Assembly: GCA_000091205.1 (NCBI GenBank)
Contig: AP006501.2
DNA: 64,000 nucleotides
Origin: Cyanidioschyzon merolae
Lineage: Eukaryota
Strand: one strand, 5' to 3'
Positions 1 through 30,300 of this stretch are shown piece by piece; position 1 is the stretch's first letter; each line of letters begins with the position of its first letter. The notes beneath the pieces are model-generated. The model worked only from the letters and a program-made list of their open reading frames with translations, was not told the origin of the DNA and did not search any database. Position numbers and translations under genes: made by a program.

Positions 1-985
1 AATATCGTAACCATCGCTGTGCCCAAGCGTCCGGTAGATGGTACTGACGGCAACTTATGTCAGAAAGACATGCGGCTTTTAAAGCTCTCGAGAGCGAGAT
101 ACTATCGAGAATCCGGTATGATGAATGGAAGAAAGAAAACTGAGATATGGAATGCAGGATTGAAAGAGCACTTGGGAGCTTTGAGCGAGGTGACGAGCCG
201 CGGAACGGACTTTCAGGCTTTTCTGAAATTCATGGAAGTTCGCTTTGCTCATTGGGAGGCGCTGTGGGAGGAGTATGCAAAGCCCCGGTGGGCTCGTTTG
301 CGTATGAACTTGTATTGTGGTAAGCAGCGGGCGTTTGCCAACTTTTCAATCAGTTGAGTGCCTTGAAGGAGGATCAAAGTCAGAGGTTCGTTGTGGCATA
401 CGGAGCAGGGCGTTGGAAGACCCAAAAAGGTACTACGCCAGCTCCAACGACGAGAACGTACAAGGAGTGTGCACGGCGTTTCGTTACGATACCTGTATGT
501 GAGTTCCGAACGTCCTATACATACCATGAACTGGGCTGTACACTTCAGAGAGTGGAGATAGAAAAGTGCCAGAGGAGCCCCGAGGATATAGCAAAGTGCG
601 GACCGCTGACGGAAGAGCAAATGGAAAGGAGGGCGAAAGTTCGTGGCCTACTCGCATTAGTAAGTACAACTCCCAACGGCAAGAAACGGATGGAGTTTGT
701 TAACCGAGATTTTAACGCCGCTATCAATATACGGAGATGCGCGGTGATGGAGAAAAGACCTCCAGAGCTGACAAGTGAGAATTTTGTTGGACAATCTCTT
801 AAAGTGGAACTATATGAGAAAAAATTTGAACCAGCCGTGGGTGGCCGGTCGAGAAGAACGGGGAGACGACTGCACGTTAGACGGAGACGTCTTGTCTAGG
901 GCGGGTTTCTCGCCACTACTGTAAACCGCTTGCGGCAGCGTTTTTCTTTGAAAGGCGTGCGGTGGTATCACGTGCACAAAGCCAC
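1..985 (+). mobile_element. Decayed TnpB/Fanzor-like element, copy A (3' part; runs off the left window edge). Includes ~85 nt of conserved sequence after the stop codon
   Basis: Frames 19..357 and 354..899 together read as a frameshifted TnpB-type C-terminus: 'TYKECARRFVTIPVCEFRTSYTYHELGC' matches the L-YKA..G..V.V.P.YTSQ.C..CG block, followed by 'C..C...CG' and 'FVNRDFNAAINI' (the RuvC-III D-x-NAA-x-NI signature). It is about 75% aa and up to 90% nt identical to an inverted copy at 29290-30300. The frame breaks near 319-354. Confidence 0.5.
354..899 (+). pseudogene. TnpB/Fanzor-like RuvC-II / Zn-ribbon / RuvC-III region. It uses a TTG start, lacks an upstream RuvC-I in frame, and is probably inactive
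   Basis: C-terminal motif 'KKRMEFVNRDFNAAINIRRCAV' plus a basic tail. The expected RuvC-II Glu is not evident ('FVVAYGAG'). The upstream part sits in another frame. Confidence 0.5.
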
Positions 986-1085
986 ACGCTATTGCCTTCT
1001 CGTGCGTGCTGCGTTTCAATATTTATAGCCGAGTTGGCCCGCTTCGATTCCGTTGCTGAAGCCGCGGTCGATAAGCGCAGAGCTG

Positions 1086-3391
1086 ATGAGCGATGTTTCG
1101 CTCCAAGGTGCGGAAAACGTCTCTCCTGTGCGTGAGCAGTTTCAGCAGCCTACGTCTAGTGCAGCAGATCCGCGAGAGCCCGCGGTCGGCAGCCGAGACT
1201 CAGCCGGCTACCCCCGAGAGCACAACGTTACCCCAGGTGTTCGGTCTAGTTCGGGTACGCAGCATGAGCGTCAGCGGACTGCGGCTTTAGCGGCCTGTGT
1301 TCGAGCGCTCGGCTGTTTCGGTGGTGCGCGAAACTCTCAATGGACGCAGGCCCAGGCGAAGCGGGAAACGACGACAGGCGCTACGGACCAATCAGCGGAA
1401 CCGTCGGTCCCGTGCGAGTCGAAAGTCGGGTCAGCAGTTGCGACTGAAAATACTGAGGACGTGCTGGGTGCTGTTGACGGCGACCACGGCGCCCCGGCCG
1501 ACGTGGACGCGGAGCGTTCTTCAGAGGTTTCTTCGGCGAGCGAGGAGCTTCCATTTCGCTCCCTGTATCGGCGGGCGCAGGTGAAATGGGCCCGCCGGCG
1601 ACTCGAGAAGCAGGTTCAGAAGCTGCTTGCATTTACCTCCACACAGCTTAGTAACCTGCAGCATGTTCGTTCCGGACAAAAGTTGGATGCCGAGTTTGCG
1701 ATCCTCGCACGAATATATACCAATGCACATATCGACGAGGATTTCGCAAGGTTTAGTCGTCAGGAGTTTCGAACCTTCGCGGAGCACTTGCCGCTGTTTC
1801 TGAATTACTTGTTGCATTCGCGGCCGCTCGATGCGCCGGCGACGAGCGCAGCGCAACGCAACGCCTGGCGAGAAGTTGCCTCTTCGACGAGAGAGCGCAT
1901 CCGCCGCCATCAGAATACTCGCAAGCTAATCGAGACGCATTTGTTGCGGCGCTGTAGCGAGTCTGTGCGTTTCGCCCTATTTGTTTATTGGTATTTGGAT
2001 GGTTGTCTGCAGCTTGGACCTGAATCGGACCGGAAGGATACCCTCCGAATTATTATTGAGATTGAGAACATCATGTCGAGGAGCATCACATGCGCGACGC
2101 CCTCTTCACAGGTCGCTGGGGCACGCCCCCCGGTCAAGTCGTTCATGGCGTCGGATACGCCGGACGCGGCGACAGCGGACTCGGCCCCGGCGACATGGAG
2201 CCCCGGTGCTGCGCTTGCGGCTCCCGCCGGTGAAGTGCTCAGCCCAGCAGACGCTGCCGACGTTGGGTCTGTTGAGAGGATCGTGCACCAGCGCGCGATC
2301 GTCCATGAGATCGGTAACGAGTCTCGAGGCGAGGGCGTCTTCAGAGATCGCATGCTGCAGGATGAGACATGTTTGGCAGGCATCCTACCTGCAGAGCATA
2401 CGATCGCAGTGGATCTCGACGCGGATGCAGCTGACTGTGCAGTGCGCTCTGCGGACTGCAGTTTTCCAGAGGCGCCTGGCGTTCAGTCAACGACAGAACA
2501 AGAGCCGCGCATGCTCGCCCAGTCAAGCTTGATGTCGAATACGCGCGTTTTTCCACGAGAATCCATAGAAACTGGCCCTGAACGGGAGATAAGTTTCGCA
2601 TATGTTTCCCGTGGTAATCTTTTTCATGCACAGCTAGATTTTATGCGCGCGCTCATATCCATCTCCGAATTGGCGCTAGGCCTGAATCGATCGCAAAGAT
2701 CACGATTCGTCGTGAGGGAACTAGGCCGCCTGAACGCGCTTGTGGAAGCAGAGCGGCGATATGTTTTTCTGCCAACGGAGCGCATTCCACACCGGGTGCT
2801 TCGCATCCTCGCAGACGAGTCACATGTGTTCTCGACAAAGGAACATGCGCCGTACCTGGCCATTGTCGAAGTGCAGGATCTGGAGTCAACCAAGCTCGCA
2901 GAGCGCGAGCCCCGCAAGACATTGGCACGCACCATTGGCGATTGGCTGCATCGGGCAGGAGAGTATCGCCCGCGAGCGCCCCGCTCCGAACAACGACATA
3001 CAATGACCTGGTTCGCTTCACCACGCGGCACCGAAGCCGTCAAATCCCCTGAAAGCGGTCTCGCAGCAGCAACATCACCAGCGACGACTCCCGATCCACC
3101 GACAAGCCCAGCGTCGCGAAGCGCACCCGCTGTCGATACGCCTTCACCTGCAGGAGAGGAGCTTTCACAGAGCCGTGGCGGGAAAAACGCCTCCGTGTCC
3201 GAGAAACGCAGTGCACGCACGCGATTGCACGCACAGGAGCGTCACGCACGGAATCGCGCCCTGCATGGCGTCGCGAATGCGGCGGCGCATTCACTGACGT
3301 TTCCTGGCCCTAATCAGGCGGAGGCACCGTTCCCATTCTCAACGCGAACAGGCACGGATGCCGCTGAGCTACCACCGATGACCCATCGGTC

Positions 3392-3429
<38 letters not shown>

Positions 3430-4529
3430 GTCTACGAGCGGACGGCGTCGGTTCCAGTCATCCAAATCTTGAGACTGCAGCTGCTTCGGCGACGGGTGAC
3501 GGGATGACTGCATCGATGCCTGCATGTAGCGAAGCACAGGATGCGCGGGATCTTGGAGCGGAACTGGAATCTGGTGAAATCAAAAACGCTTTGGCGGAAT
3601 CGCGTGAAGCATGCTCGACACCGACCAGTGTTGGCAGCGATCGTTGGCGACGTCTCTTTGGGGAGCGCTGGGCTGAAAGGGTTCAGCGTTTGCAGCAGAC
3701 GTCACCATTTGGCCGCATGCCCGGTTGGCGACTGACCTCTGTAATCGTGAAAAGCAAGGACCAACTGCGACAGGAAATGTTTGCAACCATGTTGATTGCT
3801 GAGTTTGCGCGCATCTTTGAGTCAGCTCGTCTTGACGTTTGGCTATGTCCGTACCGCATTGTTGCAACTGGGGCCGATTGCGGATTCGTGCAAGTAATCC
3901 CCGATGCGCCCTCCATTGATCAGATCAAGAAAGCTTTCCACGGTAACATGACGCTTTCTGGCTATTTTGAGGAACGGTTCGGAGCGCGCGGCAGCGCTAC
4001 ACATCGCTTGGCGGTTCGCAACTTTGTGAAAAGCATGGCCGCATACTCCGTTATCACATATCTCCTGAACATCAAAGATCGACACAACGGAAACCTGCTC
4101 ATTGATGCTGAAGGCCATATCATCCACATTGACTTTGGATTCTTCTTCACCAATTCACCTGGTGGCAATATCGAGTTCGAGAAGGCTCCCTTCAAACTCA
4201 CCTGGGAACTTGCCGATGTGATGGGCGGCCCCGACTCGAACGCGTTCCGCCTATTCCGACGACTCTGCGGGCATGCTTACGCCGAGGCCTGTGCGCATCG
4301 AAACAAGATCATGCTCATGGTAGAGTTCATGATGATGGGAAATGAGTCGCTGCCGTGCTTCCGCGGCGGGGCCGACCTCACCCTCGAGCAACTGCGAGAG
4401 CGGTTCATGCCGCGCCAGACCCGTGTCAAACGCATTGCGCACATGAACGCGCTTATCGATCGAAGCAGTAACCATTGGACGACGAGATTTTACGATCGCT
4501 ATCAGCGGTGCTGTACTGGAATTTATTAG
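1086..4529 (+). CDS. Phosphatidylinositol 4-kinase, PI4KIII-beta/Pik1 type, with a long low-complexity N-terminal region including poly-Gln
   Basis: C-terminal PI3/4-kinase catalytic domain: '...NIKDRHNGNLLIDAEGHIIHIDFGFFF...'. The ORF opens at TTG 1053 and the first ATG is 1086. Q12 run at 3398-3433. Confidence 0.85.
3398..3433 (+). repeat. (CAACAG)n / CAG-type trinucleotide repeat encoding poly-Gln inside the PI4K gene
   Basis: 'caacagcaacagcaacagcaacagcaacag' is visible and translates to QQQQQQQQQQQQ. Confidence 0.9.
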
Positions 4530-5417
4530 CTCCACGGTAAATGAGAGATCTCAATGGCTGGTATACACACTGGACAACGAGAACGGTCACCGTTCGGGTC
4601 GGGTCCGACCCTATACCGAAGTCCTGTCGCACGATACGCTGGACAGGTGCACTGCTGATGCGGACGAAGGCACCCCAGTCGAGTGCTGCACGTCGCGACG
4701 GTATGGCAAGCATCACCAACTTGCCGTCCAGTGGGTGCTCGGATTTCCGCTAAGCGAATCATTTAGATTTGTCGAGCGGCTGCGTCGCAGCCAGCGAAGG
4801 CAGGTCGAGTAGCAAGCGAATATATCGCGTGGCTCGCTACCCGGATGCCCGGACCCCAGTGCAGGTATCCTGTACGAGCGCGATCTGCTGTCGCAGACGC
4901 TCGCTACGCATGGGCGTTAGGTTCAGGCAGAAAAGCGACAGGCCAGTTCTCGATACAGCGACACGGCACAAGCAACGGAACGGAACACAAGCGTACTTAC
5001 CGAATGACGAGGCCCGAAGCCATGAGTCGCCGCTCTTGGTTCGGAGCACGCACGCACGCACACCATCACCCGCAGCAGTCTGACAACGATGCGTACGGCG
5101 TTGCAGTGTCCTAGTCGGGGCTCAAGGACACCCGCGGATGACCACTGGGAAGTGCAGGCGTCGTTTACGCGGAGCTGCTCGCGGACTGGCGAGCGGTTTG
5201 CCGGGCTCGTCGCGACACTGCGCGTGCCAACATGGACTGGGCGCCCGTCCGACTTGCGCTGAGCCTCGAGCCTGGTACAGCGCCGATGCGAACACGTGGA
5301 ACACAGAGGCCCACTCCTCTGGCAATGCTCGTCAATAGCATCCGCATGTAGACGGGTCAGCTTTGATGACGTTTTCTGAAGGCTGCCTTCCACAGAAACA
5401 CTGCCCGCTTCGATGTA

Positions 5418-5603
5418 CTACCCTGAACCAGATCGCAGTTTCCCGTGCCAGTATCGAATGCAAGCACTGTACCAGACAGTGCACCGACTGCAATTGACTC
5501 CAGACTATCCTGAACCAGATCGCCGTTTCCCGTGCCAGTATCGGAGGCAATCACTGTACCAGAAAGTGCACCGACTGCAATTGGATGTGTCTGGGTGCCG
5601 AGC
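5418..5603. repeat. Tandem duplication, 2 x ~93 bp, about 88% identical
   Basis: Unit 'cctgaaccagatcgc(a/c)gtttcccgtgccagtatcg(a/g)a(t/g)gcaa(g/t)cactgtaccaga(c/a)agtgcaccgactgcaattg' occurs twice back-to-back. It lies intergenic, ~850 bp upstream of the ArsS-like gene. Confidence 0.8.
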
Positions 5604-6447
5604 AACCACTGCAGCATATAATGAACTCGGAGACGAGCTCATCGCCGCACCTCCCTGGTAAGAACGCCCCAAGCAACAATCAAGCACTCTGATGGGCAAA
5701 GCGATATGAAAACAAGCGGGCTCCTCTTTGAAGCTTCAGTACGAGCATCTGTATCCAAGCGTGTGTACATCGACGCCCGCTCGTGATGCGGCGACTCCGC
5801 ATGAAAAATTCCAACTGCATTACAGAGACACCGAGGCGCTGTGGGTGCCCATTGTCAGCAGGGGTATCTCAATGGACGCTCAGAACATCGAGCATCGGGC
5901 GACATCGTCATGCATCCGGGCAAGTGCCGTTTCCGAAGCACAGAAGCGCTCGCATGCCGCTGTCCAGCGGATAGACGACGACAGGTGCAACTGCGGATGC
6001 CGCGCGCAAAAGATACAAACAAGACATATATGCTCCAAATTAGATATAAAGGACCAAGCTGTTGACGGGCGCATCTGGCGCGCCACCACGCCGCCTTCAC
6101 GACCGCGCTGGGTGCTACCCGACACCCCCGAACGTCTACCTCAGCGGCTGGGATTCCCTGCCGGAATCCTTCGCAGGTTCCGGACCAGAACAGAACGATT
6201 CACCCTATCTTTGCTGTCTTCGTTCGCTTACTTCTTCCATTCAACGCCACAAAGAGGTGACATGTACAGAAACTGTTTTGTAAGTCAAGGTTTCGCGGGG
6301 AAGTGCAGCGCCCCCGCAAAGCACCGCACGGCGAGCGCGTGGTGCAGGTGCCGTGGTGCACGTGGCGCCAGCTGGGCACCCTGCTTCAGAAACCGGTGCG
6401 CACCGCGGCGAACTGCGCGTGAAACTCGGCTCGGCCGTCTCGCAGCG

Positions 6448-7452
6448 ATGTTTCCGAGCGAAGACGCCGGAGAAAACGTTTTCGAAAAGCACATCGGGAG
6501 GCCGCTCTTTCACGAGAACCCAACCACGCTCCAAATTAACATCGGTTTGACCTGCAACATGGCGTGCAGTCATTGCCACGTTGAGTCGTCGCCAAACCGC
6601 AGGGAAACCATGTCCTTCGAGGTTGCCGACAGGATCCTAGAGCTCCTACGGAACTCCTGGTTCATCGAAACAGTGGATATTACTGGCGGTGCGCCCGAAA
6701 TGCACGACGCCTTTCGGTACCTGATCAGGCAGATACGCACGCACATACCGCATGTGCGAACCATCTACGATCGCTGCAACCTGACCATTCTTCGACAAAT
6801 AGAACAGTACGACTTGGTGGAATTCCTCAAACGACACCAAGTGGATATTATAGCTTCACTCCCGTGCTACGTTGAAGAGAACGTCGATCGACAACGTGGA
6901 AACACGGCTTATCGGAGGAGCATTGCGGCTTTGCTCGAGCTGAACCGTGCTGGATACGGTCTGCCCAATTCACCACATCACCTGCATCTGGTTTACAACC
7001 CGCTGGGTCCGTACTTGCCACCGAATCAACTTGGACTGGAAATCCAGTACCACGAGTATTTGTACCGTAATTTTGGCATATTCTTCAATCGACTGATCTG
7101 TATCACGAACATGCCCATCAAAAGATTCCTCGACGATCTCTGTCGGACCGGCTACTACGAAGCGTACATGGAACTGTTGGTCAACAGCTGTAACCTCGCT
7201 GCAGTGGACGGTGTCATGTGTCTCGACCAGATCCATGTGTCTTACGACGGGACGCTCCATGACTGCGATTTCAACTACGCGCTGGAGATGCCGGTGTGCT
7301 GGGGTCATCCTGATGACCCTGGTCCCCAGACCATCTTTGATTTGCAGCGTAGCTTCGATGAAGTCGCCGGAAAACAGATTCGAACGGGTGTGCACTGCTT
7401 TGGATGCACGGCGGGGAACGGATCGAGCTGTACCGGGGCGATCGTCACTTAG
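6448..7452 (+). CDS. arsS: Radical SAM/Cys-rich-domain protein of the ArsS type (arsenosugar-biosynthesis radical SAM family, TIGR04167/DUF3641-like)
   Basis: 'LQINIGLTCNMACSHCHVE' is the CxxxCxxC radical-SAM cluster in the ArsS-typical context. The Cys-rich C-terminus reads 'CLDQIHVSYDGTLHDCDFNY...CFGCTAGNGSSCTG'. Length ~334 aa fits ArsS. The upstream 240 codons of ORF 5728.. are low-complexity with no homology, so the start is set at ATG 6448. Confidence 0.75.
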   Translation: MFPSEDAGENVFEKHIGRPLFHENPTTLQINIGLTCNMACSHCHVESSPNRRETMSFEVADRILELLRNSWFIETVDITGGAPEMHDAFRYLIRQIRTHIPHVRTIYDRCNLTILRQIEQYDLVEFLKRHQVDIIASLPCYVEENVDRQRGNTAYRRSIAALLELNRAGYGLPNSPHHLHLVYNPLGPYLPPNQLGLEIQYHEYLYRNFGIFFNRLICITNMPIKRFLDDLCRTGYYEAYMELLVNSCNLAAVDGVMCLDQIHVSYDGTLHDCDFNYALEMPVCWGHPDDPGPQTIFDLQRSFDEVAGKQIRTGVHCFGCTAGNGSSCTGAIVT

Positions 7453-8206
7453 GTTCGCGTGCAACCTTGGCGGGCGATACGAGCGCGCACCGAGTGAACT
7501 GGTGAATGCAGAACCGCTCGCGCGCTGCCGGATCTGCAACACCAACCTTGTGGGGTCCAGATGCCTCTTGTGCTTCATGTGTCGACGCGACGCCATAAAG
7601 AGGGCTATGTACCGGCATGTCGCTTCATGAATATGATGCAGAGCGTGTGAGAGCATCCGTACGAAACTCTGCATGCATCACGCGGATGAGGGACGCTCCC
7701 CCATCGATAGCTGCAAGCCTGGTGCCGCTGTGTGACGTTTGATGCCTGGAGCGTCGCTTTCAAACGAACAAACGAACGAGCGAGCGAGTCCCGTTGACCT
7801 TGGACAACGCGCCGCCGACTCTACGCGTGCGAATAAGAAACCGACCGGTATGCACTGGACGTTGAGGTCGAGTCAGAGGCAGGCGCACCTTGCATCCGTT
7901 TCCAGCGTTGCTTTCCCGGTCGTCGGGTATCCAGGGATTGCGTCCCTGGTTATTCACGGTGAGGCGAGTACGGAAAGCATCAGAGGTTCTGCGCTATGGG
8001 ACAGAAACCGCGCACGGATGAACAGCCGCCATCATGTTTACGCATCCGCAGTGCTATAACCCGCTTGTTCCACCGCGGCATCCGAACGAACCCAAACGAG
8101 TCCCTGTTTCGAAGTAGACGCGAACACCTACGTACAAAGCGAGCGAGGCGTGCACCAAACTGGACGCATCCACTGCTTGAGCAGGCGCAGTCCCTCTGAC
8201 GCAGAC

Positions 8207-9712
8207 TCAGCGAGTCACCACAATATCATCAATTTTGAGAATCATTCGCGCTGCCTCGGTGGCCAAGGTAAAAGCGCTCGAGCTGACCAGGGTCGGCTGG
8301 ACGACGTGTTCGCTCAACATGTTGGCAACGACGCCGCCGCTCCGCCGAATATGGATGCCAACGCTCTTCTCACCGCGAACGTGCCGGTTCCGGAGCTCGG
8401 TGATTACCTGGATCGGGTTGAGTCCCGCGTTCTCCGCTAAGGTGTACGGGATCGTTTCCAGAGCTTCCGCGTAGCTTTTCACACAGTAGGCTTTGGCGCC
8501 ACTCAGCGTTTTCGCCCATTCTCCGAGACGCACACTGACTTCGGTCTCGACTGCTGCCCCGCCGGGAACGAGGCTGCGTTTCCGAACGAGTGACCGAACC
8601 ACACAGAGCGCATCATGCAGGGAACGTTCCGCTTCGTCCAAGATGAGTTGATTGGATCCTCTTAGCACAATGGTCATCGTCTGTGGCAGATTCGAGGTTC
8701 CAGCAGGCAAACTCGTCCAGAAAGCTGGCCGCTCCGACGAGCCATCGGGCAACATCGAGAGGCCGTTGGTATTGCTCGCGAGCGCGGCAGCCGTTGCTGC
8801 CGCCGCAGGACCCTGCACGAAACGTACGATCTTTTCGTCCCCACTGTCAAGTGCGACCTCTTCAACGACGTCGACTTTGGCGAGCTTGTCCGCGGTGAAT
8901 GTGTCCAGGCCGGCAATCGGAACACAACCTAGCGTCTTGCAGATAAATCCCACTTGATCCCGTTCAATATCGCGCACCACCATGATTTTCATTTTGGCAA
9001 GGTAGTGTAGACTCAAATCGTTGGTCGCATCCCGTAGAATCGATTTCTGAATCAACAAAACGTTGCAGCCGGTAGCCTTGATTTTCTTGCACATTTGCAG
9101 GATATGCTGGCGCTCCTCTCGTAGTATCCGATCCATTGCCGCATAGTCCTGCACGACGACGTTGTTTTCAATATCCGTTTTTGGAGCCGACAAGCAGAAC
9201 TGGATCAATGCTACTTGCGCGTTCACGATGCGGCTTGGCCCGCCCGCGGACTTGACCACCGACTGCGTCAGGATCAGTCCTGGGTAGAGGAAAGAGTCCT
9301 CGATGGTGGAGCCGAGTTTCTTGATAATGCGGATCCGCGAGAGGTCCACCGCTTGCGGTGGTGCTTCGGTCGCTTCCGACTCGATGAAGCGACGCTCGGC
9401 TACATGCAAAACAGCATCAACAGCAATCGGTGCGAGCAAACTCGCATGCTGAGAAACTATCTTGGAGTTAAGTGCCGTTGTCGCAAGTTTCACCAGTTCG
9501 TCTCTATCCGAAAGCGAAACCGGTACCGCAATCGAATCGATAATACGGAGCGCCTCCGTGCACGCAGACTGGTACGCGTCAGAGATCGTCGTCGGATGAA
9601 TACCTCGCTCGAGGAGAAGCTGACTCGCAGCAAGCAGCGCACCGCAGATAACGACGACGGTGGTGGTTCCATCACCCGCTTCTATATCCTGCGACTTTGC
9701 CAGGTTCACCAA
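8207..9712 (-). CDS. CCT4: T-complex protein 1 subunit delta (CCT4), exon 2
   Basis: '[21 protein letters not shown]...' shows the chaperonin GDGTTT motif and carries the full equatorial/apical/equatorial domains through to the C-terminus. An acceptor AG lies immediately before 'ttggtgaacctg'. Confidence 0.85.
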   Translation of the reverse strand: [501 protein letters not shown]

Positions 9713-10078
9713 CTTTTCGTGACGAAAGTAAGCGTCCAAGGTTAGTTTTTGTTCTCAACAAGTGCGGAAAATGCACAGTCCTGATATCAACGACAACGCG
9801 CTCTACGCGAAGCGTGTCAGCGTACGCGCCGCAGAGGAAGCACACGTCGCCTCCGACGGCCACGGAACGGTGGAAGGTGCCGCCACCGGCGACGCCGAAC
9901 GCCTAGATTGCTCTCGCAAACGCGTTTAACAGCCACCCCATGAATAACAGGCTCATACTATTTCGCAGTTCGAGCCCGAACAGGGGCGCTGCAAAGATTC
10001 ATTTGCAGTTGTTCTAGGTGTTATAACGCTCAGAGACCTGAACGTCTCCGTATTTGATAGATCGGTGATCAAACTTAC
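9713..10078 (-). other. CCT4: Spliceosomal intron (366 nt) of CCT4, phase 0
   Basis: Donor 'atg|gtaagt' follows 'AAKM' (plus 10074-10079 reads 'acttac'). Acceptor '...cgaaaag|ttggtg'. The joined protein reads 'PAAKM|[15 protein letters not shown]', matching the conserved '[20 protein letters not shown]'. Confidence 0.8.
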
Positions 10079-10348
10079 CATTTTCGCAGCTGGTTCCTGC
10101 ACACCCAAGCGATCCAGAATAGTCGCACCGTCATTCGTGATCAAAACGTCCCCGCGAGCACCTTCGATCATCTTGTCCATGCCTCGCGGGCCGAGGGAGG
10201 TTCGCACCGCGTCCGCCAAGGCTTTCGCCGCAGCGATGTTCGCGACGCGCACATCCCGCGCTTTAGCAGTAGTTGCAGAGGTCGAATTATCACCAGTTCG
10301 TCCCTGTTGTCCCGAACGAATCAAAGCGGTCGCTTGGTGGTTGTTCAT
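10079..10348 (-). CDS. CCT4: T-complex protein 1 subunit delta (CCT4), exon 1 (90 codons)
   Basis: 'MNNHQ...[61 protein letters not shown]' is the canonical CCT N-terminus (LGP+GMDKM, NDGATIL). ATG at 10348. Confidence 0.85.
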
Positions 10349-10576
10349 TGGCGTCCTATTCGTTCCGCTGCGCTCGAAGAAGAGCGATACACCCCAGCGC
10401 AACGGTACCGCGGAGTACCGCGGCAGGCGCGAATGCCGCGATGGCCTCGGAAGCGCACAGGCGCGCTTCGCAGCGCTGCTGGCGAAATGCACCAGGGAAG
10501 CTGCTTCTGGGGCAGGCACTGGAGCAGTCCACGAGACCTGATAATCAGGCACAGAAGCTCGGTACGAGTCACGTTG

Positions 10577-17793: not shown

Positions 17794-18429
17794 TGGAGCG
17801 GGTTCCGGAGCCATAGGAAAGCAGCCAACGCCTTAGGTTACCTGCACTTGCACAATCTCGAAAACGCAACGCCATCCTCGAGGACTCGTCACCGCCGAAA
17901 GACAGTGCTGAGCTGTCAGTGAAAAGCCAGCGCTACTTGCGGACGCTTCGGGGTCAGGTGTCATGCGCCGCTTCCACTACTACCACTCGTCGTTCTGCTG
18001 CTGCGATGATGTCGAGTTTGGCTGGCGCTATTCAGACGCTTACGCATCCAAGCACTAGCCTCGGAGAGGAGCGCTCGCGAGCTCGACCGCCACGCGGCTT
18101 AGGTTTGCGTCTCTACACGCACGCACACTCCAAGGCGCTAACCAAATACCTTGCAATAGGGAGCACCGGTGTCAAGGCGTGCTTGCCACATAGACCGGTT
18201 TTGGTGAACGCAACGCTGCTGCCGTTGCCCCCCGACGTCGCGAAGCAGCTACGTCTGCGCAGCACAGGCGACTTGTTCAGGAATACGCAGCGGGAAGACG
18301 TGTGCACACTCGTGCGCCTCGTGTATCTCGCAAAGTGATGCATCACCCGAGCAACAGAAGCAGCAGGCGTCACAGCAGTACCTGGGGCACTTTACGCGTT
18401 ACAAGAACTCTACTGAGAGGTCTCCTGGT

Positions 18430-22053: not shown

Positions 22054-25000
22054 GTCCGTTGGCCGCACGACAATCAACGACGGGATGTACGATCAGTGGC
22101 TAAAGTTCGCCAAACTGCAGCCAAACTGCCCGTTCAGAGTTTCCACCAACGCGAGGCGCTCCCGTCGCACGTACCGGCCTTGTGCAGTCCAGTGGATGTG
22201 CCAAGGCAATCAACTCCCCGAAGCTTGACAGGTCGACACTCGAACAAGACCCGCCCCAGAGAAGCATAAACCGACACGTGGACAAACCTTCGCGCTCACT
22301 AGCCTCCTCAAACCAGCCTCAAACACTTGAGCCTCACAAGAAAGGCTCCCGCGTTTACGACTTTAAGCCTCAGCAGCGAGAGAGGCACCGTGGCGTGTCA
22401 AAAGCGTCTTGTGTAGCGTTTTGTTCGAACACGCACGCACGCAGCCGAAGATCGAGCACGCACACATCTGAACCGCGATGCGTGCGGACGTAACGTGACG
22501 CATGCTTGCGTGACGACACGAAAAGCGACGCGCCGGCCGCCGCGCCTGTTGCGCGCTTGGCGCGCTCAAGAGCGCTGTCCCAATCTAGGACATAGAGGAC
22601 GCCTTTCCAGGCGGCTTCTCTGCGCCATTCAGTTGGCGGCTGCGCGGTTGCGGGTGATGTTTTTCGCGATTCCATTGGCCAGGGATCTCTGATTCCGCGC
22701 TTCGCATCAGCGCGCAGTGAAACAGGTATCGTACCATGGCCTGCTTCTAAGTTGCACGATCCGTACTTTTTTTGTCGGAGATCGTGGTTGTTGTCCGCGT
22801 TCTGTCGTACGCTGCGTGCATGCCGTGAGCGTTCGCAGTGAGCCCTATTGTGCCGCCACGGTCGCAGCACGGAGACAAAGCGGCTTTGCTACAGTCCTGA
22901 GGGCCTCGGCTCGAGGCGTGCTGCCTGCGCGAATGCTCCAAAAACGGGTGTCAGGCGCGTCAGGTATCGGGGGCGTCTCGAACAACTGCGGCTGTGCGAA
23001 GCAAGTTTCCCTTTGGACACCTTTTCATATTAATGCGAAGAAAACTCTGGGCGCTGCCCTCGTTCAGTGTGGCTTTGGCAGTAAAGTATCTTGCGTTCAT
23101 GGTTCTTTCACGCTAATTATTACTTTGCTGTATATACCTGGATTCATTGAGGAAATAGTACTTTCTATTTAGCAGTTATTCTTTGACCTAGGCTATTTTT
23201 AGGGCTAAACAGCTGCAGCAGTCTCGTTTGCATCTATTGAATCGAAAGCTCCATGTCCGAAACTTCAAAAGCAGACTTGGTTGACGTTTCTGCAGCGTCG
23301 TACCTCTCCAGACGCGGCACAGATGAAACGTACAGTTCTGCAGTTGGCATTGTGGTTGCTGCGCGCTTGTGGAGCATGTTTCCGGGACAGGTGCGCATGG
23401 TTCTCATGCGTGACGTCCGATCGAAGGGAACGCGCTCGAAGGAGACGGAAGCGCGTTTGACGGAGGAATATGCGGATGTTGTTGCACCACGTTATGGGAC
23501 GGAAGAAAAGTTCATGGCAAACCTGTGGCTCTTGCGATGACCCGAACTAGGTGTAGAATGGTCTCGGTATGCTGGTCTGCAGTGGACAACCGGCGGGCTC
23601 GCTTCCTTACTAAATGTAGTATGGAATATATCCTGAGAGAAACGAGTAGGGTCCGATACCAGATCTGCTTAAAGTGTTATGGTGGTTACTTCTGCTGCGA
23701 AGCGCTCGCTGGCAAGTCGTTTTCAAGTATGCTGCAGAGCGCGAACTCTATTCTGGACTCGGTGCTGCTTCTGTGTGCTACAAAACGGATCTAGAAGCTC
23801 TCCGCATTCCACTGACTTCGACATGGCGTGCTGTACCCCAACTGCAACCAAGCGTTTGCGAAAGGTTTCGCGTGCTGCAGCATGGGAAACCCAAGTGAAC
23901 AAAGCTGAGTCGATCGCAGAATCCGTACATGATTTGGATCCATCGGCGATAATATCTCGCCACGTGAAATCAGAAGATACTTTATGGGAAGCGCTGTGAA
24001 GTCGAACGGCCAGTTCTAGCGTCCCGGAGCATGAAGAGACACACATACGGGATGAAAGCACCTTCCTTGCAGGTCGTAGACTGCCGCAAGTACATGGCAT
24101 CGGCGTAAGGTACGAATACCTCCCGTTTTTTATGATGCTGGATCCATACGTCAAAGCAGAATCCCCCGTACTGGGAACGGTGCCGATAACCAGGGCCGGG
24201 ACCCCCGCTCGCCTCAGCCGATCCACCGCACCACAGGGTCACCTCGTGTATACCCTCAGAGCCACACATTGGACCGATCTGGTGAGTTCATCCGCACCGG
24301 GCCTCCAGAGTACGCTCGCCAGGACACACGATACACCTTTGAAGTCGTTCACACAGGTGGACAGGACGGCTTCGCGCTGCCTTTGCTGAAATTCGTCCAA
24401 GGGCATATCGCCTGACCCTCTCCAGGCACCCAAATCGCGTTGGAGCACGTATTGCAACTCGCTTAATCTCGCAGAATCTCACCGAGCGCATCCCGCGAAA
24501 AACACACTTTGCATCTTCAGATCAGCGCTACCTAGCAGAGCTGAGGTTCATTCTAGCACATTCTAGAATGTCATTTGGCGAGAGGACGCTTTGTCGGAGC
24601 TCTTGTAGAAAGCGCCCCGAATTCAGAATGCTCAACTTTGCAGCGCAAACACTCGGGAGAGCGCCGAGCCCGTCGCTTGTCCGTGCAGATACAGGTCTCG
24701 GTGTTCATGCTCGCAGCGGCTCCTGCAGCTTGACTTTCCGCAAACTCGCACCGAACCAACGGTGTAAACTCGGTCTCGACAACGGATTCGGCCACTGTAC
24801 TTTTGTACGCGTTTTTCCTTGCATCCGAGTTCGAAATGGGTGTAACACTCAGCGGCACGGTCGGTGAACGGTACCTGCTGTTGGAAAAGCCAACGCACGC
24901 TGCATCTGGTTTCGAATATGCTCGACTGCACCACTCTCGCCGCAGTCTGAATTCATAAACAGCTACGCTACACGATTGAATCTGAACGGAAGCCCGACCG

Positions 25001-25737
25001 GCTTGTTCATTGCAGTAACTGCTTCGGACTCGAGGGTGCACACACGGATACGGTACCAGAATAGAGCATGAGAAATGCCCTGATCGGCCTGGTCGTTGTG
25101 GGAACTGCTTCGGTAATGGCACACGGTGACGAGGTGCTTGAGCAAGCCCCCGCGCACCCGCACCCCTGATGGACACCTCTACCAGAATCGCTCGCGTCAC
25201 TGCAAATGCAACAGGAACCAACCAATACGCCCATATAACTAACAGCATACGTTTACATACACATTCATGAGAACGATAATCGAAAGCACACAAACAAACA
25301 TCTCGCTGCGAAACGCTTCCCAGCACGACAGTACCTGGAATGAACGAATCGCACGCTGCAGGTGCTGAACGCAGCAGGTCGCCAGGGCCTCGGCCCCCGC
25401 TCCGAGGCGTCGCAGCTTCGGAAGGCATCGATCGCTTTTGATGCGTGCGCGCTTGGGCGCGGGCACCTGCATACGTGCACGCTGCGCACGCCGCTTGCGT
25501 GAGTCGACTTGCCGCGAAAACAACCTCAAGGCACACGCTGAACGCAAAAACGCTCCACTTTTCCAAACAGGTGCCTAGTACTTGTGGTGTGAGTTCTGTG
25601 TTAGGGCAGGTTTCGGTCTCCGTTGAGAATAGTGCAGGTTAGGAGCGACCTTATCCAGACGTGGCGTTCCTCGGTGTTTCCAGGCGTTTCTTTCGTTGCG
25701 AGCTGGTGCGTGCTGGTGAGCGCGCCCCTCGGAACCT

Positions 25738-28700
25738 ATGGCAACCTCAGATGCAACCTTTGGGGCGGTTGAATCTGATACAGCGGGATCGCTTCTGAAC
25801 TTTGAGCTGCCAGATCAGGACTTTTTGCTGCAGCTCGAGGCAAAAGTCCAGCAGCTCTATGGGGCGCGGTCTGAAACAGATCGCAAGTCGGCCCAGGAGG
25901 AGCTGACGGCGCTCCAGATGCATCCACAGGCGTGGATGCGTGTCGATAAGATTCTCGATTCGAGCACGACTAGTGAGCCCTCCAAGTTTTTCGCGCTACA
26001 AATTCTCGAGTCTTTAATCAAGTATCGTTGGAAGACTTTGCCGACCGAGACACGAGAGTCCATCAAGCTTTATGTTCAGAACAAGGCAATACTCTTGTCG
26101 TCGTCGGCGGAATCTCTGGTACGTGAACGCACGTTCCTTTCAAAGCTGAACCTCATCTTGGTGCGAATAGTGGCCCAGGAGTGGCCCTCCCGTTGGCGCT
26201 CGTTTATCAGCGACGTTGTGAACGCGAGCAAAACGTCGCCGACACTTTGCGAAAACAACTTGCATATTCTCCGATTGCTGAGCGAGGAGGTGTTTGATTT
26301 CTCAGCTGGGCAAATGACGCAAGACAAAATCGACGAGCTCAAGACGACATTCAACCAAGATTTTAGTGAGGTTTACGACCTCTGTCAGTATGTATTCGCA
26401 CAGCGAGTAATACTGCAGCAGATGCAGCCATCGCTTCTTGTGACTACGGTGCAGACGCTAGAGAAGTTTTTGTCGTGGGTTCCTTTGGGCTATATCTTCG
26501 AGACCGACCTTTTGGAGACGCTGCTTGAGCTGTTCGATTACTCTGCAGAGCTGCGCAATAGTGTGATGCGTTGCCTCGTTGAGATTGCAACACTCTCTGT
26601 TGGTCCCGAGTACGACGAAAGATTTCTGTTTCTCTACATGACACTTCTATCAAAACTCGCCGTTGCGGTACCACTGGAGGTCGACATTGCTGCGCACTAC
26701 GACCAGGCCAGTGAAGCAACCCAGTCTTTTATTATGGACTTGGCGCTGTTCCTCACAGGCTTCTTTGGGGCGCACGCAGCGCTGCTCGAGCAGTCTTCGG
26801 ACCCGGCACATCGTCAGGCACTCGTGACGGGAAACATGTACGTCGTGAAGATTGCTCGAGTCAACGACGTGGAGGTTTTCAAGGTCTGCCTCGAATGGTG
26901 GCGGAGCCTCACGGAGAGCCTATATCGGGCTCTCTTCTCCATGTTAGACTACGCCGTGGGAGAGCGGACGCCACTCACTTTGGACGCGGATCGACCCAAT
27001 TTCGAGCGACTCGAAGATCAGCATGCACGTCGCCAGCTCTACGCCAGCGTACTATACCAGATTGCCCTGGTCATGATCCAGAGAATGGCGAAGCCAGAGG
27101 AGGTGCTCATTGTAGAAGACGAGAACGGCGAGATCGTGCGGGAAACCACGAAGGACACCGATGCGTTGGCGCTATACAAGACAATGCGGGAGACGTTCAT
27201 TTTTCTAACCCACATTGACCCGCTGGATATTGAAACCATCATGATTGAGAAGCTCGATCGTCAACTTGACGGAACCGAGTGGAGTTGGCAAAATCTGAAC
27301 ACGCTCTGTTGGGCCATTGGATCCATCTCTGGTACCATGAGCGAAGAGTCCGAGAAACGCTTCCTCATTCATGTTATCAAGGATCTCCTGCGATTATGTG
27401 AGGAGAAGCGAGGAAAGGACAACAAAGCCGTGGTCGCAGCGAACATCATGTACGTCGTGGGGCAGTACCCGCGCTTCCTGCGAGCACACTGGCGTTTCCT
27501 GAAAACCGTGGTGAACAAGCTTTTCGAGTTCATGCATGAGCTGCACCCAGGAGTCCAGGACATGGCGTGCGACACGTTTCTGAAAATCGCGCAGAAATGC
27601 CGAAGACAGTTTGTCATCGTACATGCAGGTGAACATCAATCTTTTGTGAACGAGATGCTGGACAATCTGGAGAGCATTATCGGCGATCTGGAGCCGCATC
27701 AGGTGCACTCTTTCTATCAGTCTGCCGCAACGATGATCAGTGCAGAGACGGAGAGTAGTACGCGGGAACTCTACATCCGCCGTCTCTACGACGCGCCGAA
27801 TCGTCGCTGGCGATCCCTTTTGGAGGAGGCGACGCTTGACCAGAGCTTGCTGCGGGATAGGAATCGCATGAAGGAGCTCGTTCACGTTTTGCGCCTGAAC
27901 GTGCGAGGCGCGCAGGCTTTGGGTCCCCTCTTCTATCCCCAGCTGGTGCACATTTACATGGATCTGCTCGCGCTGTACCGGCAATTTTCGCAGATGGTCT
28001 CCAATGCGGTCGCATTAGGGGGCATGATCGCAACACGAAGCACCGACGTCAAGAATATGCGCGCCGTGAAGAAGGAGGCACTCCGTCTGCTAGAGACATT
28101 TTTCGAGCTAGTCGATCGTGACCCCGAGGTTCTGCACGCGGCAGCGGAGCAACTGGTGGAGCCGCTCTCCGGCCCCATTCTCGGCGACTATGCGCAATCC
28201 GTACCGGATGCCCGTGACGCGGAGGTGCTTACGCTCTACGCTGTCATTATCGAACATCTGCGGCCGTACGCAAATATGCTGACGCCTCTCATACCAGTCA
28301 TATTCCGATCGTGTTTCAATGCGACGCTAGAGATGATTACGACGAATTTTGAGGATTTTCCGGACCATCGAATAGGTCTGTTTCAGTTGTTGCGAGCAAT
28401 TAACACGTCTTGCTTTTCCGCGCTGTTCTCATTGGATCCGGACCCGGCAGTAGCGGAGCAGTCGTTCCAGCTGGTCATTAACGCTATAGTATGGGCGTTC
28501 AAGCATACGGAGCGGAACGTTGCCGACACAGGACTGCAGACGCTGCTCGAGCTCCTTCGGAATCTGGATAGTAGCGGTTTCACCGAGTACTTTTACGAGC
28601 GCTATTACTTGTTCATTCTTAACGATATTCTTGCAGTGCTTACGGATACCTTGCACAAACCAGGTTTCTCGCTACAGGCACAAGTGCTCATGCATCTTTT

Positions 28701-29079
28701 CACGGCAGCTCGTCGGGGTCAAGTTCGATTGCCGCAAACCGATGGTGGCGAAGCGACTGGCTCCACCACTGCGATGGCCTCTGAGACGATGGTACGCGAG
28801 CATTTGCAAACGCTCCTGGAGAACGCCTTTCCGAATATGGGCCCTGTGGCAGTGCGTCAAGCGGTTGATGGCATGTTCCTCTTCCTGGACGACGAGCGCC
28901 TCTTCAAGCAGCACTTGCGAGATTTTCTGGTCCGGACCAAAGAGTTTCTCGCAGGTGACAATACCGATCTTTACGACGAGGATCGCCGATCACTAGAGAC
29001 GAATGCCCAGAGGGCCTTAGCTGTGGTCCCTGGCATGTCCAAGCCCAGCCAAGCAGCCGATTCAGACGACGAAGACTGA
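25738..29079 (+). CDS. XPO1: Exportin-1 (CRM1/XPO1), single exon
   Basis: Full-length 1113 aa. 'AQEELTALQMHPQAWMRVDKIL...FALQILESLIKYRWKTLP' is the importin-beta N-terminal domain, and HEAT-repeat architecture is conserved throughout. ATG at 25738 verified. Confidence 0.9.
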   Translation: MATSDATFGAVESDTAGSLLNFELPDQDFLLQLEAKVQQLYGARSETDRKSAQEELTALQMHPQAWMRVDKILDSSTTSEPSKFFALQILESLIKYRWKTLPTETRESIKLYVQNKAILLSSSAESLVRERTFLSKLNLILVRIVAQEWPSRWRSFISDVVNASKTSPTLCENNLHILRLLSEEVFDFSAGQMTQDKIDELKTTFNQDFSEVYDLCQYVFAQRVILQQMQPSLLVTTVQTLEKFLSWVPLGYIFETDLLETLLELFDYSAELRNSVMRCLVEIATLSVGPEYDERFLFLYMTLLSKLAVAVPLEVDIAAHYDQASEATQSFIMDLALFLTGFFGAHAALLEQSSDPAHRQALVTGNMYVVKIARVNDVEVFKVCLEWWRSLTESLYRALFSMLDYAVGERTPLTLDADRPNFERLEDQHARRQLYASVLYQIALVMIQRMAKPEEVLIVEDENGEIVRETTKDTDALALYKTMRETFIFLTHIDPLDIETIMIEKLDRQLDGTEWSWQNLNTLCWAIGSISGTMSEESEKRFLIHVIKDLLRLCEEKRGKDNKAVVAANIMYVVGQYPRFLRAHWRFLKTVVNKLFEFMHELHPGVQDMACDTFLKIAQKCRRQFVIVHAGEHQSFVNEMLDNLESIIGDLEPHQVHSFYQSAATMISAETESSTRELYIRRLYDAPNRRWRSLLEEATLDQSLLRDRNRMKELVHVLRLNVRGAQALGPLFYPQLVHIYMDLLALYRQFSQMVSNAVALGGMIATRSTDVKNMRAVKKEALRLLETFFELVDRDPEVLHAAAEQLVEPLSGPILGDYAQSVPDARDAEVLTLYAVIIEHLRPYANMLTPLIPVIFRSCFNATLEMITTNFEDFPDHRIGLFQLLRAINTSCFSALFSLDPDPAVAEQSFQLVINAIVWAFKHTERNVADTGLQTLLELLRNLDSSGFTEYFYERYYLFILNDILAVLTDTLHKPGFSLQAQVLMHLFTAARRGQVRLPQTDGGEATGSTTAMASETMVREHLQTLLENAFPNMGPVAVRQAVDGMFLFLDDERLFKQHLRDFLVRTKEFLAGDNTDLYDEDRRSLETNAQRALAVVPGMSKPSQAADSDDED

Positions 29080-29289
29080 GTATCTTCCTCGTCCGAAAAT
29101 CGCAAGCGCAATTCGAATCAAACGGAAACGCGAGCAGCAGAAACCCAGGAAACGATGTTGTTGCTGGTGATGAACGCGAGACGCAGTGCGGACCCTGCAC
29201 CAGCACGCCCTCGACATCTCGTATGCCGCCGTCCATCAAAGCGTTTCCTGCTCTCCGGGCAATGGCAGTGCAAAGCTACGAAATCCGGA

Positions 29290-30300
29290 TTCGCTGACGA
29301 CAGCGAACGCCTTTCTAAAGTCGAAAGCAGTCGTCAGCGATACAGTGGTGGCGGCGAACGCCCGCCCTAGACAAGACGTCGCCCACTGATGTGCAGAGGC
29401 CTCCCAGTCTTTCTCGACCGGCCACCTACTACTGCTTCCAACTTTTTCTCATGTAATTCCACCATGAGAGGTTGTCCATGAAAATTCTCTCTCGTCATTT
29501 CTGGGGGTCTTTTCTCCATCACCGCACATTTCCTTATATTGATAGCAGCGTTAAAGTCTCGGTTCACGAATTCCATACGTTTCTTGCCATCTCTGGTTGT
29601 ACGTACTAATGCAAGTAGTCCTCGAACTTTCGCTCGCCTATCCATTTGCTGCTCCGTCAGCGCTCCGTATTTTTTACAATCCTCAGTACCCCGCTGGCAC
29701 TTTTCCACAGAGACCCTCTGAAGTGTACACCCCAGCTCATGGCGTATGTATGACGTTCGGAACTCATCTACAGGTATCGTAACGAAACATCGTTCGCACT
29801 CCCTGGACGCTCATTCCGAGTCGCTGTAAACCGGAAACGAAACTCTCCTCGACAAGCCATGAAAGTGGTGTTGTGGCTTTCCGCCAGACACGGTGGCTGT
29901 ATTTGCCGTGCCCGTGGCCCTGCAGGCGTGTTTCGGGGTGCGCTGACTGCACAAAAGCGGCGAGTTCGCGCTGCTGCCCTAGTATCTGGATGCTGGCGAC
30001 TCCCCGGCACAGATACCTTACGATGTGCGGACGGAGCATGCTGCTTCAGCACCGTAAGAACGACGCGCTCTCATGCGCGTTCCCTTGTGATCCAAGATAT
30101 GATCCACAGAGTGATAGTGGCGGCTAGCACGGAGCGTCTTCCGCATCGACTGCCGATCTGGGAACTGCGGCCCAGGGTTCGGAGTTTCACGTCACGAATG
30201 GTCCATACGCTCACGAGCGGTACTCGAAGCGGGCGCGCTGGACATTACACACTGCTTTGCTGCACGAGAACAGTGCTATGCTCGGGGCCGGCTAGAGTAC
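29290..30300 (-). mobile_element. Decayed TnpB/Fanzor-like element, copy B, inverted relative to copy A. Includes the conserved flank after the stop codon
   Basis: ORF 29367..29708(-) reads '...KKRMEFVNRDFNAAINIRKCAVMEKRPPE...GRRLV*', ~75% identical to copy A. Upstream frames 29764..30039 and 29768..30052 align to copy A (nt core 'gtttcgttacgatacctgta(t/g)(g/a)tgagttccgaacgtc' ~90% identical). An in-frame TAG and a 1-nt deletion disrupt the frame. Confidence 0.5.
29367..30052 (-). pseudogene. TnpB/Fanzor-like nuclease pseudogene (frameshifted, with an internal stop)
   Basis: Same motif set as copy A (YTSQ-like block, Zn-ribbon Cys pairs, NRDFNAAINI) split across two frames. Confidence 0.5.

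Follow-up and report, generated by a model that had tools for sequence, protein, structure and literature searches.

Fanzor1 is the eukaryotic relative of the bacterial RNA-guided nuclease TnpB, and its experimentally characterised representatives include the nucleases of Spizellomyces punctatus (8gkh), Parasitella parasitica (9cf0) and Guillardia theta (9cer). A Fanzor1 gene is also carried by CMe-1A, a transposon family of Cyanidioschyzon merolae (Bao & Jurka 2013, Mob DNA 4:12, PMC3627910). That paper gives ~150 copies in the genome, a length of ~3 kb, ~80% identity to the consensus, no TIRs, 5′ 635 bp in common with the short element TE-N2_CMe, and some copies still intact. It also likens CMe-1A to HAL1-type 'ORF1-only' non-autonomous families.

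We analysed a stretch of 64,000 nucleotides (the window), which, judged by its sequence, is nuclear DNA of C. merolae 10D; three of its encoded proteins are identical to the RefSeq entries XP_005538902.1, XP_005538903.1 and XP_005538905.1 of this strain. Two segments of the window, copy A at its left edge and copy B to the right, are very probably fossils of CMe-1A, a transposon family that is present in many copies in this alga and whose sole gene is a Fanzor1. The identity with the named family is based on matching descriptions. The published length of ~3 kb corresponds to 3.1 kb here, and the published ~80% identity to the consensus to median identities of 79-83%, with 81% between copies A and B. 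Copy number (~150), lack of TIRs, Fanzor1 as only gene and host genome agree as well, and nothing substantive differs from the description consulted, to which a hairpin at the 3′ terminus and the chimeric short form seen in copy B are additions. The family is therefore not new, having been known from the same genome since 2013, and the argument of the preliminary description that such relics are rarely annotated fails in view of the published CMe-1A. For genome annotation the impact is small, since two more pseudogenised copies are added to a published repeat family. Some interest lies in the family itself, which has Fanzor1 as its only gene and abounds in a highly compact algal genome, without transposase, TIRs or known target site; its Fanzor1 comes from a large zinc-finger-less clade.

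The homolog search returned 231 proteins, and at least 394 metagenome loci were found to encode a relative of the family. Homology among 80 related loci spans 3.1 kb, from position ~7994 to 11136-11144 of the metagenome contig L001, which is orthologous to the copy A locus. The element core measures ~2.5 kb and consists of a leader of ~400 nt, a Fanzor1 ORF of ~690 codons and a structured 3′ end of ~95 nt. Many copies carry an additional TE-N2_CMe-like 5′ unit of ~620-635 nt; this unit is separable (L001 7994-8629) and is found elsewhere in solo copies. Neither a transposase gene nor TIRs were found in the reconstructed element.

The TnpB/Fanzor-like character of the two relics, as claimed in the preliminary description, was borne out and sharpened to Fanzor1 by a deep profile, A4, made from 81 diverse proteins without C. 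merolae family members. These were drawn from the clusters of the family profile A1, which matched 1,426 clusters among protein representatives. The assignment to Fanzor1 follows from the fact that A4 matches both the window pieces (E-values in Table 1) and the solved Fanzor1 chains 9cf0 (2.2e-21), 8gkh (1.5e-14) and 9cer (3.8e-8). When single window sequences were searched, Pfam gave only PF07282 at E=0.5-0.7, limited to an 11-residue motif that covers just the last 11 positions of the TNB domain, and the PDB gave no match. The preliminary description had named the absence of a significant TnpB/Fanzor profile hit as evidence against its own reading; a shallow Pfam check alone would have produced that outcome, and the deep profile was required. 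An AlphaFold2 model from a shallow 23-sequence family alignment reached pLDDT 37 and pTM 0.21, values too low for the model to be of use.

Three catalytic motifs match the Fanzor definition in PMC10711439. The family as a whole has DPG in its RuvC-I motif, with P0002, P0003, P0033 and the consensus all reading GADPGNTNI; in copy B this region is missing, and the motif of copy A lies outside the window and reads GAHPGNT in the ortholog. The RuvC-II glutamate is repositioned, preceding the zinc-finger position by six residues; in 83 sequences it stands in VDEFRT[ST] without exception, and both copies have it. The RuvC-III pattern RD..NAA..NI is nearly invariant in A2 and A4, and NRDFNAAINI was found in both copies, as had been claimed. 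On the contrary, the paired Cys Zn-ribbon residues of the preliminary description did not hold: between RuvC-II and RuvC-III the C4 zinc finger CxxC...CxxC is absent, only HHELGC...EKC (HHxxxC...C) being present, and the wider clade consensus also lacks CxxC pairs. From these sequences the zinc finger is read as degenerate, in a clade whose other parts align to Fanzor1.

In comparison with the characterised Fanzor1 nucleases, homology is at profile level over REC/RuvC (~280-350 aligned positions) and includes DPG in RuvC-I, RD..NAA in RuvC-III and the glutamate that precedes the zinc-finger position by six residues. The level of sequence identity is low. Two features set the C. merolae clade apart from them: an insertion of 20-25 residues takes the place of the CxxC...CxxC zinc finger, and RuvC-I is immediately preceded by a tandem repeat of 24 residues, which is variable. 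With bacterial TnpB of IS200/IS605 and IS607 (e.g. ISDra2) the family shares the RuvC D-E-D architecture, a remnant of the TNB domain (weak PF07282 match), and the arrangement of a gene plus structured 3′ end without TIRs, whereas it differs in its eukaryotic host, DPG, repositioned glutamate, roughly double size, and lack of a TnpA partner and of a defined target motif. HAL1-type families are likewise old and abundant, with a single accessory ORF and no transposase of their own, but they belong to another element class and their protein is unrelated. By homology, an intact Fanzor1 of the family would associate with an omega-RNA made from the element's 3′ end, its guide presumably read from the flanking DNA, and the complex would cleave DNA that matches; the analogy with TnpB suggests that this cleavage might favour retention or copying of the element.

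Table 1. Positions of the two relics and their parts in the window
Feature	Position	Strand	Evidence or remark
Copy A	1..966	+	3′ third of ~3.1-kb CMe-1A Fanzor1 element; nhmmer
Copy A coding piece, frame 1 (NIVTIAVPKR...KQRAFANF)	1..344	+	A4 hmmsearch E=2.4e-37, profile 383-477
Copy A frameshift	341..344	+	TTTT in window, TTTTT in L001 (1-nt deletion)
Copy A coding piece, frame 3	345..899	+	A4 hmmsearch E=8e-38, profile 477-604
Copy A alternative RuvC-II glutamate, E of EFRTS	E 501-503, EFRTS 501-515	+	
Copy A RuvC-III motif NRDFNAAINI	702-731	+	
Copy A stop codon TAG	897-899	+	translation
Copy A non-coding 3′ end	900..966	+	alignment of 45 non-redundant 3′ ends
Copy A small GGCG/CGCC hairpin	~902-914	+	
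Copy A terminal hairpin, decayed	~925-963	+	folding z ~ -0.1
Copy B	29291..29812	-	522 nt, 5′-truncated CMe-1 3′ fragment; nhmmer E=6e-148
Non-Fanzor 5′ part of the repeat unit of copy B	29813..30660	-	alignment to L022, L021
Copy B open frame, 147 codons (29370-29810) + TAG	29367..29810	-	translation; A4 hmmsearch E=2.4e-26
Copy B EFRTS	29751-29765, E 29763-29765	-	
Copy B RuvC-III motif NRDFNAAINI	29535-29564	-	
Copy B stop codon TAG	29367-29369	-	
Copy B terminal hairpin, intact: TCGCTGACGAC ... GTCGTCAGCGA	29291..29340	-	folding

Copy A is a near-full-length insertion adjoining the PI4-kinase gene. It corresponds to positions 1692-2656 of the 2669-position element profile made from 25 copies (nhmmer E=0, 1084 bits), and its first coding piece opens right after the RuvC-I motif. 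In L001, 99.4% identical, the element begins ~2.2 kb upstream of window position 1 and ends at window 966. Since the window edge cuts the element, its upstream part was deduced from this contig, and copy A is not the self-contained ~1-kb relic that had been proposed. The frame split placed near 319-354 was located in a T-run (Table 1). In the Yellowstone ortholog (99.4% identical) the reading frame has already been split into four, and HPG replaces the family's DPG in RuvC-I; beyond these lesions, strain 10D carries one further 1-nt deletion. Copy A has a median nucleotide identity of 82.6% to other family copies, and copy B one of 79%.

Copy B matches element-profile positions 2146-2658 (nhmmer), thus reaching the natural 3′ end of the element, and by tblastn it covers only the C-terminal ~144 aa. 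It had been taken to extend over ~1 kb (~29290-30300), but Fanzor homology is limited to 29812 down to ~29291, and positions 29813-30300 bear no Fanzor resemblance by tblastn, nhmmer or protein profile. The Fanzor/non-Fanzor junction also exists at a second genomic locus: L022 (positions 427-1796) and L021 align through it with 84% identity over 1328 nt, and there the 3′ flank is a macro-domain gene instead of exportin. Copy B is a chimeric short derivative of ~1.37 kb, in which the Fanzor 3′ end is joined to an unrelated repeat of ~850 nt, and this chimera has been copied at least once. The statement that both copies are broken stands in that copy A is frameshifted and copy B is dead, but the lesion of copy B is 5′ truncation together with fusion to the unrelated 850-nt repeat, not a stop or frameshift. 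The supposed in-frame TAG lies in 'cct gta gat gag', read as P-V-D-E in a frame that is open until the natural stop, and the supposed 1-nt deletion is a comparison of TSYIRHELGC with TSYTYHELGC, which are of equal length with no net frameshift. Neither copy is able to make a nuclease, and neither has a detectable function here.

The 3′ end is the part that the derivatives have in common, short forms ending at the same terminus as the full element. In 41 of 45 copies (p=5e-8, mean z -2.3) the sense strand gives the better fold of a long 3′-terminal hairpin, which in copy B has an MFE of -26 kcal/mol (z=-4.05 vs dinucleotide shuffles). Arm-swap covariation is weak (p=0.04 overall, 0.21 within subfamilies), RNAalifold gave no consensus structure for the 3′ end, and a comparison with Rfam gave no match. 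Tentatively, the hairpin might be the functional core of the family, either as the omega-RNA scaffold of the zinc-finger-less Fanzor1 clade or as a copying handle. Such a role would explain why chimeras like copy B and tails of ~100 nt keep exactly that end and, if true, would offer the first mechanistic hold on the Fanzor1-only transposon described in 2013. Together with the derivatives sharing it, the hairpin could guide a search for omega-RNA and mobilisation, a modest lead and not a discovery.

A related proposal is that CMe-1 is not moved by cut-and-paste but copied from its 3′ end, through a LINE-type enzyme priming its RNA at the stem-loop or through rolling-circle copying. This mode would explain common 3′ ends combined with variable or chimeric 5′ ends. 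The single sharp 3′ end of all CMe-1 copies, with its long sense-biased hairpin, is consistent with it, as are nested fragments of ~90, 104, 520 and 940 nt all ending there, the chimeric 5′ sides of copy B and L022, at least four different 5′ regions, among them a TE-N2-like unit that is present in either orientation, and the absence of TIRs from CMe-1A as published (PMC3627910). We nevertheless consider it unlikely: TSDs were looked for at the truncated copies and found for none, a poly-A or microsatellite tail is missing from CMe-1, some of the seeming truncations are due to internal deletions or are embedded in other repeats, no partner enzyme for such copying came to light, and the covariation of the hairpin arms is weak. 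The proposal concerns the movement of the family, and the identity of the two relics as CMe-1A fossils is unaffected by it.

It is very improbable that copy B is a domesticated fragment whose 147-codon C-terminal RuvC/TNB frame was kept because the cell uses it. The frame is indeed open from 29810 to the natural stop, copy B is present at the orthologous site in all nine related contigs examined, and dN/dS is 0.23 vs copy A and 0.34 vs the L022 paralog. However, low dN/dS is expected between transposon copies, as selection on the active lineage predates insertion, and the strains compared, being 97.7-100% identical, are too close for constraint to show. Furthermore, in the L022 paralog, which shares the junction, the RuvC-III codon is hit by an in-frame stop, the first plausible start in the frame is an internal GTG (113 codons), and without RuvC-I, WED and REC copy B cannot be a nuclease.

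The arrangement of the copies was also examined. Repeat search (454-905 pairing with 29361-29812, 452 nt, 80% complementary) and blastn (81% over 476 nt) agree on two homologous relics in inverted orientation with their 3′ ends inward, and the identities given in the preliminary description (~75% aa, up to ~90% nt) correspond to 75.5% aa over 147 residues and 90% in the best 60-nt stretch, the overall nucleotide value being 80-81%. This orientation around the 28-kb block could suggest a composite transposon, or a recombination substrate moving or inverting the block, but such a role is very improbable. The copies share only 470-520 nt at 80-81% identity, and their architectures differ, copy A being of full-length type and copy B a chimeric derivative found elsewhere with another flank. 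The 28-kb interval, which contains the genes for PI4-kinase, CCT, IDH, exportin-1 and others, is ordinary chromosome of single-copy host DNA, collinear in related strains over window positions 1-10,905 and at the exportin/copy B locus (~22,240-32,600). Two or more copies are expected in ~12% (~1/8) of 64-kb windows, as estimated from ~150 copies per ~16.5 Mb (PMC3627910). The inverted pair does not stand as a structural unit. A composite transposon would have near-identical, complete-ended bounding copies, TSDs around the whole unit and a block that moves or is variably present, and this combination is not what the locus shows; no TSDs were found. The repeat search detected only two inverted pairs across the whole window, neither at element ends. 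The two copies look like old insertions, which would have occurred independently of each other, and nothing special is learned from them about the host genes between.

Finally, the suggestion that the reading frame with NRDxNAAxNI is that of a host protein family unrelated to Fanzor, the motif being a coincidental likeness, has next to no probability: despite the PF07282 match confined to 11 residues and the lack of a direct PDB match, it is refuted by the independent profile A4, which, at strong E-values, ties ~280 aligned window residues to three Fanzor1 proteins of solved structure, and the sequence, being a dispersed repeat 80% identical between copies and present at the at least 394 loci, is not a host gene family.

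The two relics proved to be real, although several details of their preliminary description are wrong. A repeat search of the window showed that positions 454-905 and 29361-29812 form a 452-nt inverted repeat, 80% complementary, and blastn aligned copy A (1-966, plus strand) with copy B (29291-29812, minus strand) at 81% identity over 476 nt. The two related segments lie in inverted orientation, with their 3′ ends pointing toward each other. The proposed identities of about 75% for amino acids and up to about 90% for nucleotides were also borne out, with 75.5% identity across the 147 residues of the common reading frame and 90% in the best 60-nt stretch, and the NRDFNAAINI motif was found in both copies. 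By the identity of three window proteins to RefSeq entries of strain 10D, which rules out an oomycete host, the window is nuclear DNA of the intron-poor red alga C. merolae; the interruption of its CCT/TCP-1 chaperonin gene probably marks one of the few introns that the genome contains.

Host genes in the window and conserved motifs of its two Fanzor1 copies
Feature	Position	Strand	Remark
CCT/TCP-1 chaperonin gene	8207-9739 and 9953-10723	-	Two ORFs ~210 nt apart; split in 10D and in metagenome ortholog
Isocitrate dehydrogenase subunit 2	11783-12949	-	End-to-end identical to C. merolae 10D RefSeq protein
PHD protein	16237-17628	+	End-to-end identical to C. merolae 10D RefSeq protein
Exportin-1	25738-29079	+	End-to-end identical to C. 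merolae 10D RefSeq protein
EFRTS, copy A	501-515	+	
NRDFNAAINI, copy A	702-731	+	
TAG stop, copy A	897-899	+	
EFRTS, copy B	29751-29765	-	
NRDFNAAINI, copy B	29535-29564	-	
TAG stop, copy B	29367-29369	-	

Searched as single sequences, the frame-corrected copies gave no matches in NCBIfam or the PDB, and in Pfam they reached only PF07282, below threshold (E=0.5-0.7) and through an 11-residue motif alone; a shallow profile of close family relatives (A1) likewise had no match in the PDB. Run against 1.84 billion representative proteins, a profile of the family retrieved 1,426 clusters, a good number of them 600-700 residues long. An alignment of 81 of these clusters from which C. merolae family members were left out (A4) matched ORF pieces of the window at 324-896 (E 8e-38), 1-354 (E 2.4e-37) and 29370-29810 (E 2.4e-26). 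A4 also matched Fanzor1 proteins of known structure, from Parasitella parasitica (9cf0, E 2.2e-21), Spizellomyces punctatus (8gkh, E 1.5e-14) and Guillardia theta (9cer, E 3.8e-8), which settles Fanzor1 membership. At the level of sequence comparison, the original Fanzor reading, which the Pfam check on single sequences did not support, is correct once tested with the deep profile. Conserved columns comprised G-DPG-R-NI (RuvC-I), an invariant glutamate in VDEFRT[ST] (repositioned RuvC-II) and VNRD-NAA-NI (RuvC-III); the DPG of RuvC-I, the repositioned RuvC-II glutamate and the RuvC-III motif are Fanzor-defining columns (PMC10711439). A further defining feature, the CxxC...CxxC zinc finger, is missing, against the paired Zn-ribbon cysteines of the preliminary description: the C. 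merolae family has HHxxxC...C plus a 20-25 residue insertion instead, and in the wider clade around it cysteine pairs are absent altogether. An AlphaFold2 model from a 23-sequence family alignment was unusable (pLDDT 37).

The Fanzor1 clade to which the C. merolae family belongs (P0123-P0269 among the listed members) is large, consisting of these 1,426 clusters, formed at 50% identity and mostly from metagenome or read-archive assemblies, and includes KAJ9522957.1 of Haematococcus lacustris. Precomputed annotation assigned PF26935.1 to family proteins P0008, P0015, P0017 and others, and a separate Pfam search gave no such match. An acidic 24-residue unit (approximately VTKDEEKKEADPAMQEVEDNDLVV) is tandemly repeated in the Fanzor1 ORF directly before the RuvC-I DPG, and its copy number varies between otherwise near-identical loci (L024 4135-5958 vs L016 4135-5811; proteins P0003, P0006 and P0009).

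TnpB/Fanzor relics had been described as rarely annotated in eukaryotic nuclear genomes; judged by the published description, those in the window belong to a repeat family already known from Bao & Jurka (2013, PMC3627910). That paper describes ~150 copies in C. merolae of the Fanzor1 element CMe-1A, with a consensus of ~3 kb to which copies are ~80% identical, no TIRs, TSDs that could not be determined, a 5′ 635 bp with 95% identity to a separate short element (TE-N2_CMe, ~70 copies), and an intact protein still encoded by some copies. Our reconstruction from 80 related loci matches CMe-1A point by point. In L001, a contig of the Yellowstone metagenome Ga0078972 (PMC8986864) with 99.4% identity to window 1-10905, element homology extends from about 7994 to 11136-11144 (3.1 kb), and its 5′ unit (7994-8629) is separable and also found alone. 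The window copies have a median identity of 79-83% to other copies, and relatives are encoded at at least 394 loci. A fully intact Fanzor1 ORF was sought among the 80 loci, where none covers the whole profile, the best (L002 1760-3541) spanning profile positions 116-604. The CMe-1 core is essentially a single Fanzor1 gene followed by ~95 nt of 3′ sequence, without a transposase. A repeat of ~620 nt is present as a solo copy at 36854-37439 (minus strand) and as fragments at 46558-46771, 55263-55349 and 22864-22924. With 67-75% identity to the 5′ 635 bp of the L001 ortholog of CMe-1A, it probably represents TE-N2_CMe. At other loci this unit abuts the CMe-1 core on its 5′ side, in one orientation or the other, an arrangement suggestive of mutual insertion preference and not of a fixed 5′ end.

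Both copies are broken, as had been described, copy A by a split frame and a 1-nt deletion in 10D and copy B by upstream loss. Judged from their sequence they are inert fossils of the family, and for this reason of low interest in themselves. Copy A, cut by the window edge, covers positions 1692-2656 of the 2669 in the element profile (25 copies, nhmmer). In its L001 ortholog the Fanzor1 frame is already in four pieces (9020-9376, 9352-9756, 9746-9940 and 9944-11074) and RuvC-I has HPG in place of the family's DPG. The additional 10D lesion is the deletion in the T-run at 341-344, one T shorter than in the ortholog, and it accounts for the frame break noticed near 319-354. A short GT...AG intron at 319-354 was ruled out, since the conserved KQRAFANFFNQL motif crosses it and only a single T separates copy A from its ortholog there.

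Copy B covers element-profile positions 2146-2658 only, from 29812 down to about 29291, and its frame is open over 147 uninterrupted codons. The in-frame TAG reported for it consists of letters that straddle two codons (GTA GAT), and what was taken for a 1-nt deletion is two differences that offset each other and leave the length unchanged; copy B is dead through the loss of all upstream sequence. Nor is it a Fanzor relic of ~1 kb, as family homology ends at 29812 and tblastn, nhmmer and protein-profile searches found no Fanzor similarity in the next 850 nt (29813-30660). The same junction between this 850-nt segment and the Fanzor fragment occurs at a second locus (L022, L021; 84% identity over 1328 nt), followed 3′ by a macro-domain gene instead of exportin. 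Copy B is therefore a member of a ~1.37-kb chimeric derivative ending at the natural 3′ terminus of the family. Copy B was present at the orthologous site in 9/9 related contigs retrieved (97.7-100% identity), and no empty allele was found among these nine exportin-linked contigs.

Nothing suggests that the inverted pair is a functional unit around the gene block. The copies differ in build as well as in sequence (81% identity), no TSDs were found around either, and in related strains collinearity extends to the left part of the block (window 1-10,905) and to the exportin/copy B locus. By our own arithmetic, from the published ~150 copies and roughly 16.5 Mb, about 0.6 copies would be expected per 64-kb window and at least two in about 12% of such windows, half of those inverted.

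Every CMe-1 copy has a sharp 3′ end, which folds into a long, imperfect hairpin, with typical arms CACCGCTGGCGACAACGTTTTTC (5′) and GAAAGGCGTTTGTTGTCGCTGCCGTG (3′) and, in two subfamilies, distinct self-complementary inner stems (CGTTCGA/TCGAACG and CGTTTTTC/GAAAGGCG). Copy A has mostly lost this hairpin; copy B keeps it (29340-29291, -26 kcal/mol, z=-4). Among 45 non-redundant 3′ ends, the mean z-score was -2.3 against dinucleotide shuffles and the sense fold was more stable than the antisense in 41 (p=5e-8). The many G·U wobbles among the pairs argue for an RNA structure over one of DNA. Copy-specific covariation was weak (outer arms, own vs swapped, −13.4 vs −12.7 kcal/mol; p=0.04 overall, 0.21 within subfamilies), and RNAalifold on the 45 aligned ends gave no consensus structure, registers differing between the subfamilies. 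By homology, an intact CMe-1 would express Fanzor1 together with an omega-RNA from its 3′ end, with the guide taken from the flank. Fragments of ~90, 104, 520 and 940 nt all end at the common 3′ terminus and there are at least four alternative 5′ regions, which would be compatible with copying of CMe-1 from the 3′ end. A search at eight internally truncated copies gave no TSD in support of this (no common string of at least 7 nt). The last ~100 nt of CMe-1 (stop-codon region and hairpin) also occur inside a different repeat (L042 370-473; L026/L027 2330-2420), where conserved sequence flanks the embedded tail on both sides.

Related contigs are numerous and derive from metagenomes of hot springs. 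L001 and L083-L090, from Yellowstone and other hot springs, match 10D at 97.7-99.4% identity across tens of kilobases, and this includes the transposon insertions. An Rfam scan of the whole window gave no matches. Low-copy repeats at 15220-15628, 33734-34137 and 14162-14234, which lie outside the CMe-1 element itself, have 67-78% identity with flanks of a few CMe-1 loci. In addition, the window contains a tandem array of ~8 units of 86 nt (59894-60581; 66-96% identity) and two copies of an 87-nt direct repeat (5417-5583), also present in the Yellowstone ortholog.
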